A DNA stretch of 6,464 nucleotides from a virus (lineage: Duplodnaviria > Heunggongvirae > Uroviricota > Caudoviricetes), in IMG/VR virus record IMGVR_UViG_2684622618_000013. One strand, written 5' to 3'. A program made the position numbers and the translations under genes. The notes beneath the pieces were generated by a model. The model had not been told where the DNA came from, made no database searches, and saw only the letters and a program-made list of their open reading frames with translations. This document shows positions 1,997-3,934 of this stretch, one piece after another (the stretch's first letter is position 1; each line of letters opens with the position of its first letter).

Positions 1997-3934
1997 TCAG
2001 CCGCCGGACGCACTGCCGTAGTTCACTCCGGTGATCACCGCCACCGCCGCAGTACGGCGACGACGCCAGTTGATCCAGCGCTCCGCACGGATGGCCACGC
2101 TGCCTGTCTGGAACATGGAAACCAGCTCCACCGGGGACGGCGTGGTACTGTCGCCGCCCGGCTCAGACTGCATTTCCAGTGATGCCTCGCGGGACATATC
2201 CACTGCCACGCCGCCGTCATCCGCCAGATAAATATCCGGGGCATTCACCAGCACCAGCTGGTCACCCACGTACTGGGAGACAATCACCGGCAGCCCCTGG
2301 AAGGAGCCACCCAGCAGGGTCATGTCCGGGTATTCCTTCTGACCCAGCGCATTTTTACGCATGGACAGTGCCAGGGCATTGGTGCTGGACATCAGCCAGA
2401 CCGCACCGGTGGGCTGCAGGTTTGCTGCCACAAACTGTCCAAACGCAGCCTCGGCATCCGCATCCGGGTTACCGGTTGATGCCGTGCCCTTCACATCATG
2501 GGTGATGGACGCCGGGGAGACATCTGCCACTGCGGCTTTTTTCGGGTCCACAAAGTCTGTATCCAGACGCGCCACCACCGCTTCCGCCAGCGCATTACGG
2601 ACCAGTGCATCAGCAGCCGGACTGGAAAAACGGATCAATTCTTCCGTCAGTACCGCAATGGCCGACACCTTCGCATGACTGAAGGTGATGGATTCAAAAT
2701 CAAACTTCGTCAGGGGTTTTGCCTTACCCTCACCCACCCAGCCGGCAGCACCGCCGGACACCTGGGCGTGCACACGGATATTGAATGGCACCTGACGAAG
2801 TGCAGGGATCCCGCCCTGACCAAATCGCCCGATAATGGTCTGCGGACGCAGGTAATCAATAAAGTCCTGTGCGTATTCCTGATATTCAGACAGGCTGCCT
2901 GCCCACTGCGGATCCGTGGTGGTCCCCGCGCCCACTGCCGATTTCAGGACATGATGCAGACGACTGTCATCCGGATACTGACGACGGGCCACTTCCAGGG
3001 CTTCAGATCGGACGCCTTTAGCCGCAGCCAGCGATTTGGCAAAGCGGGCGAAGCCAATCCCCTTATCCAGTTTCTGCTCCACACGGATCACCGGCGCAGA
3101 AGCCACCGCGGCCACATTCCCGTTACCGGCCTGTTTCACCGGCTGCGCCGTGGCGGCCTTACCGGCTTCCAGTTCACGCAGGCGCTTCAGGTGCGCATCC
3201 ACCTGACGGATTTCCGCTGCGGTGTTGTCGTAATGCTCTTCCTCCTCCACATCCAGCGTGCGCCCTTCCTCTGCGGCTTTGGTCATGACCTCCTCAAGGG
3301 AGGCTGCCAGCGCTGCACGCTTGTTTTCAAAACTTTTAATCTGTTCGCCAATATTCATTATGGTCTTTTCCTTATGAAAAACGGTTGTTGACTGTGCCGC
3401 AGCGCCGGCAGAAGATGCGATTTTCACCACCGGTTTCCGGTTGCCGGACGCGGCAGAAAACGGGCGGTCGTAAGATTTAATGGTCCGGATGGTGCATTCC
3501 GCATTCGCGGGCACGGTGACGGCAGACACCTCCATCAGTTCCCAGCGCAGAAAATGCAGTCCGCCTCCGTCCAGAAAGGTGTATTCATGGGGACGGAAGC
3601 CCACGGACAGCCCCCTGACCAGCCCGGTCTTAATGGCCGCCCAGACCTCATCCAGCCGGGCAGCCAGTTGCGACGGCATATCCGGTACGGGCTTCACCAG
3701 TGTTGCCGTGATTTCCAGCCCTTCGCTGACCCGGCGCACCGTACACTGCCCCACCGGGCGGGAATGGTCATGCTGCCAGAGAAACGGGATCGCACTGCCA
3801 AACTCCGCGCCCTCCGGCTCCAGGATGTCACCATCCCGATCCGGAGAAGGCGTTGACGCAATCCCGGTGATCACCCGTTCATCCTCACTGAAGGATTTCA
3901 CCGTCAGCAGGGAACAGGCCCGTTTAAGAGTCAC
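1997..3934 (-). CDS. Prohead protease / scaffold-like / major capsid protein fusion (HK97 family protease domain + HK97-fold MCP)
   Basis: GTG start at 3934..3932 with AGGAGG 5 nt upstream; TGA stop at 1999..1997. Residues ~1-160 carry prohead-protease hallmarks (FLWQHDHSRPVG, GLSVGFRP, ELMEVSAVTVPAN). Residues ~193-260 are a charged coiled-coil-like segment (MNIGEQIKSFENKRAALAASLEEVM...LKRLRELEAGKA), as in delta-domain N-termini of HK97-type capsid proteins. Residues ~270-645 look like an HK97-fold capsid protein. The 645-aa frame is continuous. Confidence 0.9.
   Translation of the reverse strand: MTLKRACSLLTVKSFSEDERVITGIASTPSPDRDGDILEPEGAEFGSAIPFLWQHDHSRPVGQCTVRRVSEGLEITATLVKPVPDMPSQLAARLDEVWAAIKTGLVRGLSVGFRPHEYTFLDGGGLHFLRWELMEVSAVTVPANAECTIRTIKSYDRPFSAASGNRKPVVKIASSAGAAAQSTTVFHKEKTIMNIGEQIKSFENKRAALAASLEEVMTKAAEEGRTLDVEEEEHYDNTAAEIRQVDAHLKRLRELEAGKAATAQPVKQAGNGNVAAVASAPVIRVEQKLDKGIGFARFAKSLAAAKGVRSEALEVARRQYPDDSRLHHVLKSAVGAGTTTDPQWAGSLSEYQEYAQDFIDYLRPQTIIGRFGQGGIPALRQVPFNIRVHAQVSGGAAGWVGEGKAKPLTKFDFESITFSHAKVSAIAVLTEELIRFSSPAADALVRNALAEAVVARLDTDFVDPKKAAVADVSPASITHDVKGTASTGNPDADAEAAFGQFVAANLQPTGAVWLMSSTNALALSMRKNALGQKEYPDMTLLGGSFQGLPVIVSQYVGDQLVLVNAPDIYLADDGGVAVDMSREASLEMQSEPGGDSTTPSPVELVSMFQTGSVAIRAERWINWRRRRTAAVAVITGVNYGSASGG

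Follow-up and report, generated by a model that had tools for sequence, protein, structure and literature searches.

In phage λ, the C and Nu3 genes share one open reading frame (ORF), which encodes an N-terminal protease and also holds a second start in the same frame, served by a ribosome-binding site of its own; the shorter protein is the C-terminal part of the longer one. Both products enter the procapsid, in proportions fixed during translation. The λ protease is of a family other than S78. In herpes simplex virus (HSV), UL26.5 has a separate promoter and transcript. The protease of HK97 is reportedly recruited non-covalently via its C-terminal tail, and Gifsy-2 is said to have a ClpP-like protease and a capsid with a λ gpD-like decoration protein. 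λ C/Nu3 has been cited as a precedent for nested protease/scaffold genes, and for gp17/gp17.5 of the archaeal virus HFTV1, Ribo-seq and mass spectrometry have demonstrated nested products (bioRxiv 10.64898/2026.09.13.751334). Fusions of protease and capsid protein are on record for Gifsy-2, Paracoccus prophages, thaumarchaeal proviruses and actinobacteriophages. Here, we analyse such a fusion gene, carried by a 6,464-nucleotide (nt) stretch of DNA from the Caudoviricetes virus record IMGVR_UViG_2684622618_000013 (the whole stretch is hereafter called the window), and the evidence that translation may also start inside it, at the methionine codon 193 (M193).

The window corresponds to the head module of long-tailed lambdoid Shiga toxin (Stx)/O157 prophages (phage 2851, YYZ-2008, BP-4795), and all its large ORFs lie on the minus strand. 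Within the 645-codon ORF considered here, the Pfam family PF04586 (Peptidase_S78) matches residues 48-152 (34.7 bits, cut-off 21) and PF05065 (Phage_capsid) matches residues 386-635 (52.7 bits, cut-off 24.2). No Pfam match to ClpP, S14 or S49 was found in this ORF at E <= 0.01. In databases it is annotated as a single coding sequence under the name 'major head protein/prohead protease' or 'phage major capsid protein', so that the existence of the fusion is not new. Our results make it likely that this ORF consists of two nested genes in one frame. From sequence comparisons, it is very probable that a protease-capsid fusion and a capsid-only protein are both produced from it. The initiation signals exist, sit at the domain boundary, match real gene starts in strength and are kept at the nucleotide level in distant fused homologues.

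Initiation signals at codon 193

The original prediction had pointed to an ATG at 3358..3356, encoding M193, with AAGGA about 10 nt upstream. Both elements were confirmed. The ATG (3358-3356) lies in the sequence context ...cgtttttcaTAAGGAaaagaccataATGaatattggc and is preceded, after a spacer of 10 nt, by the Shine-Dalgarno (SD)-like hexamer TAAGGA (3374-3369; Table 1). The calculated duplex with the anti-SD sequence, -6.2 kcal/mol, ranks third among the 35 in-frame ATGs of the window's ORFs and 21st among their 143 in-frame ATG, GTG and TTG codons. This value is close to those at the starts of the large terminase gene terL (-6.1) and of the portal gene (-5.8). Within the window alone, the internal SD signal is moderate.

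The structure of the messenger around the internal ATG was evaluated on 71 nt. The minimum free energy (MFE) of this segment is -6.6 kcal/mol versus a gene-wide mean of -22.6 +/- 5.5, giving it rank 6 among 622 such segments of the gene. The region round the internal ATG is the least structured spot of the gene. Low structure and low guanine-plus-cytosine (GC) content on the one hand, and conservation in homologues on the other, are the two features that exceed chance. At the upstream GTG site, the SD is stronger (-10.3 kcal/mol) and structure is more pronounced (MFE -17.9 kcal/mol). In contrast, the internal site combines a weaker SD with ATG as start codon and hardly any structure. A scan of the interval 1900-4100 gave no sigma-70-like promoter, and an internal promoter on the model of HSV UL26.5 was set aside as unnecessary.

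To place the internal start on the protein, an AlphaFold2 model was built from 81 fused homologues (mean predicted local distance difference test score, pLDDT, of 86). The N-terminal domain can be assigned, from its sequence matches, to the S78 caudoviral prohead serine proteases (HK97 gp4 family). Its residues H55 and S110, which we take by analogy to be the catalytic dyad, are unchanged in 81/81 fused homologues. Residues 156-189 of the linker that follows are predicted to be disordered (pLDDT below 50), and the first modelled helix begins at residue 195, so that the helical scaffold ('delta') domain would open with M193. Thus, the model places the internal start at the boundary of the disordered linker and the helical delta/scaffold domain, in keeping with the earlier proposal that it marks the border between protease and capsid. 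Sequence matches and model together identify the remainder as a HK97-fold major capsid protein with an N-terminal delta domain. Profile matches of this part to solved major capsid proteins include 9d9w (3e-18) and 8gta (5e-10).

Two short motifs stand out in the otherwise variable linker. They are AASG (residues 161-164) and AGAAA (residues 176-180; family consensus P-G-V-S-G), encoded at about 3454-3395, and the AASG and P-G-V-S-G motifs are kept in 57-62 of the 81 homologues. Both are candidate sites of protease self-release.

The part of the protein following the internal start was then compared with known proteins. HMMER, run with residues 193-645 as query on 1.84 billion representatives clustered at 50% identity, returned 969 matches at E <= 1e-30. 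The best 150 of these 969 mix fusions of ~630-670 residues, in which the match begins near residue 190, with stand-alone capsid proteins of ~440-490 residues. In many of the stand-alone relatives (440-490 residues), residue 1 aligns to M193. In addition, positions 199-263 of the family profile align with residues 4-68 of the solved stand-alone 385-residue 'Major head protein' 9gyi_B. The resemblance to the N-terminus of free-standing capsid proteins, as originally suggested, is thereby borne out. In a MAFFT alignment, 96/106 fused representatives carry a methionine within 8 residues ahead of a conserved E-Q-I motif, and in 73/106 it sits at -4 or -5, where the stand-alone proteins have their first residue. 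The chance of a methionine in a random 8-residue window is 17%. Fused representatives without this methionine mostly carry valine or leucine.

Some homologues have 150-430 extra N-terminal residues ahead of the protease (P0123 and P0126, ~1090 residues; P0154, P0202 and P0251, 834-866 residues). In P0001 (1079 residues) and P0004 (784 residues), the N-terminal extra part corresponds to terminase or portal Pfam domains. These extended homologues may be larger fusions or assembly artefacts.

Conservation of the proposed internal start and alternative explanations

Nucleotide-level conservation was studied with 160 loci from species-representative genomes and IMG/VR, of which 123 fused and 17 unfused loci were kept after duplicate removal. 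The sources of the 160 loci are Enterobacterales, other Gamma-, Alpha- and Betaproteobacteria, as well as metagenome-assembled genomes labelled Actinomycetales, Phycisphaerae, Clostridia and others. A motif was called SD-like when its anti-SD duplex was <= -5 kcal/mol. At the codon aligned to M193, the 123 fused loci show ATG in 114 cases, GTG in 7, TTG in 1 and CTG in 1. The median anti-SD duplex at this site is -6.2 kcal/mol, with 90% of the loci at <= -5 and 46% at <= -7. As compared to this, only 18% of the 1645 other in-frame ATGs of the same ORFs reach <= -5 and 2% reach <= -7 (Mann-Whitney p = 3e-52). When pseudo-starts were scanned from -40 to +40 codons, a sharp peak was obtained at the true site (mean dG -7.6), most other offsets giving values of ~-1 to -3. 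SD and start are separated by 4-9 nt in 116/123 fused loci (94%), with a mode of 7. At -10..+20 of the internal start, the mean GC content drops from ~0.60 to 0.465 and the MFE of 40-nt segments rises from ~-10 to ~-5 kcal/mol. Finally, the internal starts and the annotated upstream starts of the homologues have the same SD median (-6.4 for both) and the same mix of start codons. The original prediction would have failed had homologues lacked an in-frame methionine and an SD-like motif at this position; on the contrary, 122/123 fused loci have ATG, GTG or TTG there, and in 90% an SD-like motif precedes it at a suitable distance.

The two genes are apart in the 17 unfused loci. In all of them, the capsid gene starts at the codon aligned to M193, and the stop codon of the protease gene lies 0-106 nt upstream of this start or overlaps it as ATGA or GTGA. 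In three of them (L045, L062 and L074), the protease stop is the TAA of a TAAGGA SD sequence. This string recurs in the window, where its TAA (3374-3372) is out of frame. According to the sequences, a single indel would split or join the protease and capsid genes. The history of the two states was examined with a neighbour-joining (NJ) tree of 143 representatives (107 fused, 36 stand-alone); this fast distance method is a rough guide at such divergence. In the tree, the root is fused and the 36 stand-alone forms fall in ~35 separate lineages. Such scattered stand-alone lineages would be expected if the internal start already works in fused genes, so that a stop or a frameshift in the disordered linker is tolerated and merely replaces one viable arrangement by the other.

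The same comparisons bear on the possibility that the ATG and its SD are relics of formerly separate genes, that only the full-length fusion is made and that each capsid subunit carries its own protease. Unfused relatives with the same start codon do exist, and the fused and unfused states often interconvert, so that some fusions could be recent. By a rough volume estimate, a T=7 procapsid could also hold 415 protease domains. However, the fused state is that of the majority (107/143 representatives) and the inferred state of the root. Moreover, the upstream linker has diverged beyond alignment, yet ~90-99% of the 123 fused loci, across several phyla, retain the start codon, a correctly spaced SD and the AT-rich stretch of low structure. 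Substitutions at the methionine position were counted as confined to GTG and TTG (with one CTG among the 123). Neutral decay would have erased such signals, and the relic explanation is therefore unlikely, although it is the one that keeps most ground among the alternatives.

A second alternative is that the conservation is exerted on the protein, the methionine and the preceding K/E/G residues being kept as a protease cleavage site or as the first turn of the scaffold helix. Protein motifs can indeed mimic an SD, as a conserved E-E-G motif does at +34-36 codons. Likewise, a methionine of the delta helix (M217 region) is fairly conserved, and the conserved linker motifs AA-S-G and P-G-x-S-G are possible cleavage sites. 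Against this explanation, the SD motif is spread over the three codon phases (60/40/23), and 81 different tetrapeptides encode it. Therefore, the motif is constrained as RNA rather than as protein. The same purine-rich motif is found in the non-coding spacers of unfused relatives. A valine at the M193 position is always encoded by GTG, though GTG makes up 35% of the valine codons in these ORFs. In addition, the stand-alone proteins begin at this methionine and hence have no upstream residues to pack against, and the linker is predicted to be disordered. We regard a purely protein-level constraint as very unlikely.

A -1 frameshift on the T-run GTTTTTC (3382-3376) was considered as well. After reading TCA, the ribosome would reach the TAA (3374-3372) and release a free protease, TAAGGA serving mainly as a stop with a stimulatory SD. 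The TAA of TAAGGA does lie in the -1 frame directly after the five-T run, and the same out-of-frame TAA is found in several enterobacterial relatives (L002-L005, L007, L104, L108-L112). However, no canonical X XXY YYZ heptamer is present in the zero frame, the T-run is missing in close relatives (L005, L007, L100-L107) and the TAA is missing in many (L100-L103, L105-L106). The TAA can be read merely as the 5' part of the extended SD complement UAAGGAGG. As no conserved slippery site is present, frameshifting to the out-of-frame TAA was rejected as highly improbable.

Least probable of all is that the fusion is an assembly or annotation artefact of a genome that really has two genes: a 453-residue version exists in databases, but the ORF is intact in 1257 E. 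coli records (812 at >=99% identity) and 92 phage records, and the 453-residue calls stem from contig ends or from an assembly with split terminase and portal genes. These E. coli records are those that cover at least 80% of the 1938-nt ORF uninterrupted. The ORF was matched in 1255/5426 complete E. coli genomes, with up to 7 copies per genome, and in 93 phage records, 92 of which cover at least 80% of the query. The phage records include 2851, YYZ-2008, BP-4795 and 1717, and Stx1a, Stx2a and Stx2c converting phages. The exact 453-residue nested sequence is present in public databases (L162-L167) as 'phage major capsid protein', but solely when a contig begins within the gene or when the assembly has its terminase and portal genes split as well. 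These E. coli entries were rejected as natural unfused variants, being contig-end truncations or products of a frameshift-ridden assembly. They are evidence neither way, except that gene callers accept this start.

Several observations weigh against use of the internal start. In the window, the SD comprises only six bases (-6.2 kcal/mol) and its 10-nt spacer is at the long end of the family range. The E-E-G motif (AEEGR at ~3256-3240 in the window) generates a second family-wide SD-like peak, at the +34-36 codons mentioned above, and M217 (3286-3284) is another conserved methionine; SD-like strings and conserved methionines can therefore arise without initiation. The p-values overstate independence because homologues share descent, and resolution of the NJ tree is weak at 40-55% identity. 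The internal site could be blocked by ribosomes that are elongating after initiation upstream. Full-text literature searches found no published protein-level or ribosome-level data for this gene. They also found no published account of an internal capsid start in a protease-capsid fusion; as these searches did not reach the Gifsy-2 and HK97 delta-domain papers, an earlier mention is possible. As to M217 itself, a GAGGAGG string lies only 2-3 nt ahead of it, too near for normal initiation.

Features of the gene and of the head module

The coordinates of the gene, of its parts and of the neighbouring genes are gathered in Table 1.

Table 1. Features of the protease-capsid gene and neighbouring genes in the window
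Feature	Position	Strand	Basis
Full-length ORF, 645 residues, 69.0 kDa: S78 prohead protease, linker, delta/scaffold domain, HK97-fold major capsid protein (by sequence matches)	1997..3934	minus	GTG start 3934-3932; ORF list, Pfam
GGAGG SD of the full-length ORF, 5 nt ahead of the GTG start	3940..3944	minus	duplex -10.3 kcal/mol
Folded protease domain, residues 18-155 (predicted)	3470..3883	minus	pLDDT above 90 over residues 20-150; Pfam S78
Linker, residues 156-192, variable in length and sequence; last codons encode the putative internal ribosome-binding site	3359..3469	minus	low conservation, many gaps
AT-rich, weakly structured initiation region round the internal start, 31% GC	3323..3393	minus	MFE -6.6 kcal/mol
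TAAGGA, SD-like hexamer of the internal start, 10-nt spacer to the ATG	3369..3374	minus	duplex -6.2 kcal/mol
Internal in-frame ATG, codon 193 (M193), proposed start of the nested gene	3356..3358	minus	sequence and homologue alignment
Proposed nested ORF, 453 residues, 48.2 kDa: delta/scaffold domain and major capsid protein; frame and stop common to the long ORF	1997..3358	minus	translation
Helical delta/scaffold-like domain, residues 193 to ~265 (predicted)	3140..3358	minus	AlphaFold2 helices 195-223, 229-262
HK97-fold capsid body, residues ~340-645 (predicted)	2000..2917	minus	Pfam PF05065, profile matches, model
Small terminase	6219-5656	minus	ORF list and Pfam scan
Large terminase (terL)	5659-3998	minus	ORF list and Pfam scan
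73-residue ORF between the capsid and portal genes, overlapping the portal start	1952-1731	minus	
Portal gene	from 1785	minus	

Upstream of the protease-capsid gene, a hairpin resembling a terminator (7 bp, 4 GC), with a T-run after it, lies at 3973-3956 on the minus strand, between the terL stop and the GGAGG. This hairpin could reduce transcription into the head genes unless antiterminated. Downstream, the 73-residue ORF has no Pfam match and no SD (dG +0.6). It is annotated as hypothetical, and its position is kept in E. coli contigs.

Two runs of 50 N (213-262 and 516-565) lie in the 3' half of the portal gene and are gap placeholders for 204 and 165 nt of the reference (L001 8370-9269). 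Both fall where the portal ORF, annotated with 860 residues, is extended at its C-terminus. Positions 1-212 of the window align to the reference at four offsets ~162 nt apart. These offsets indicate tandem repeats of ~54 residues.

Proposed expression of the gene and comparison with known systems

If the ORF holds two nested genes, initiation at GTG 3934, directed by the GGAGG, would yield the 69-kDa protease-linker-delta-capsid fusion. Other ribosomes would bind TAAGGA (3374-3369) in the AT-rich, unstructured linker region and begin at ATG 3358, giving a delta-capsid protein of 48 kDa whose sequence is that of the last 453 residues of the fusion. Because the delta domain and the HK97-fold body are common to both products, these should co-assemble in one procapsid shell. 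The long form would carry a limited number of covalently tethered protease domains into the procapsid. By analogy with HK97 biology, the protease would then remove the delta domains together with the linker and itself. The number of protease copies in each procapsid would be fixed by the relative rates of the two initiations.

With less confidence than for the single gene, but still as the better supported possibility, we extend this reading to S78 protease-HK97 capsid 'fusion' genes in general. Such genes would be two nested genes, in which a live internal start has been kept throughout the history of the family, across Proteobacteria and other phyla. The ratio of the initiation rates would set the protease copy number, and the free switching between fused and unfused states would be explained by single stop or frameshift mutations.

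The gene is found in many medically important prophages, including Stx1, Stx2a and Stx2c converting phages, where only one product is annotated for it. Should the internal start be used, these phages would have the 48-kDa protein as their main capsid precursor, and their protease dosage would be governed during translation, like that of λ, herpesviruses and the archaeal virus. This would extend the design principle to scaffold and capsid made as a single polypeptide, would account in a simple way for the recurrent joining and splitting of protease and capsid genes, and would supply an annotation rule for thousands of similar genes.

Among known systems, λ C/Nu3 was the analogy put forward in the original prediction. 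Its nested in-frame logic holds: here as in λ, a protease ORF has an in-frame internal start at a domain boundary. What does not carry over is the nature of the short product, which in λ is scaffold only, the capsid protein gpE being encoded by a separate gene, whereas here it would be the scaffold domain together with the capsid protein. HSV-1 UL26/UL26.5 and HFTV1 gp17/gp17.5 likewise derive a protease-scaffold and a scaffold-only form from one frame, as is proposed for the two forms here, but their short product is without the capsid protein. In the window, the nested ORF spans the whole HK97-fold body to the common stop, so that the scaffold would not be made separately from the capsid. 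Because its short product would include the capsid protein, the gene lacks one defining feature of nested protease/scaffold pairs. A paper on the cyclic oligonucleotide-based antiphage signalling system (CBASS) was dismissed as a relevant precedent, since it concerns a protease-scaffold fusion.

As regards the fusion, the 'tripartite capsid gene' of Gifsy-2 is similar: in a lambdoid enterobacterial prophage, a single ORF encodes a protease, a central scaffold-like region and the capsid protein. The protease type differs, being S78 here, with no ClpP-like domain. The fusions of actinobacteriophages, Paracoccus and Thaumarchaeota show, by their annotation, the same order of fused domains as here and were reported purely as fusions, with no mention of an internal start. 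HK97 gp4/gp5 share with this gene the protease family PF04586, the capsid family PF05065 and the N-terminal helical scaffold domain on the capsid protein, and the 453-residue nested product has the architecture of HK97 gp5. In HK97, however, protease and capsid are encoded by two separate genes, whereas here they are fused. Overall, we conclude that the gene probably works like the nested protease/scaffold pairs, with a different architecture.

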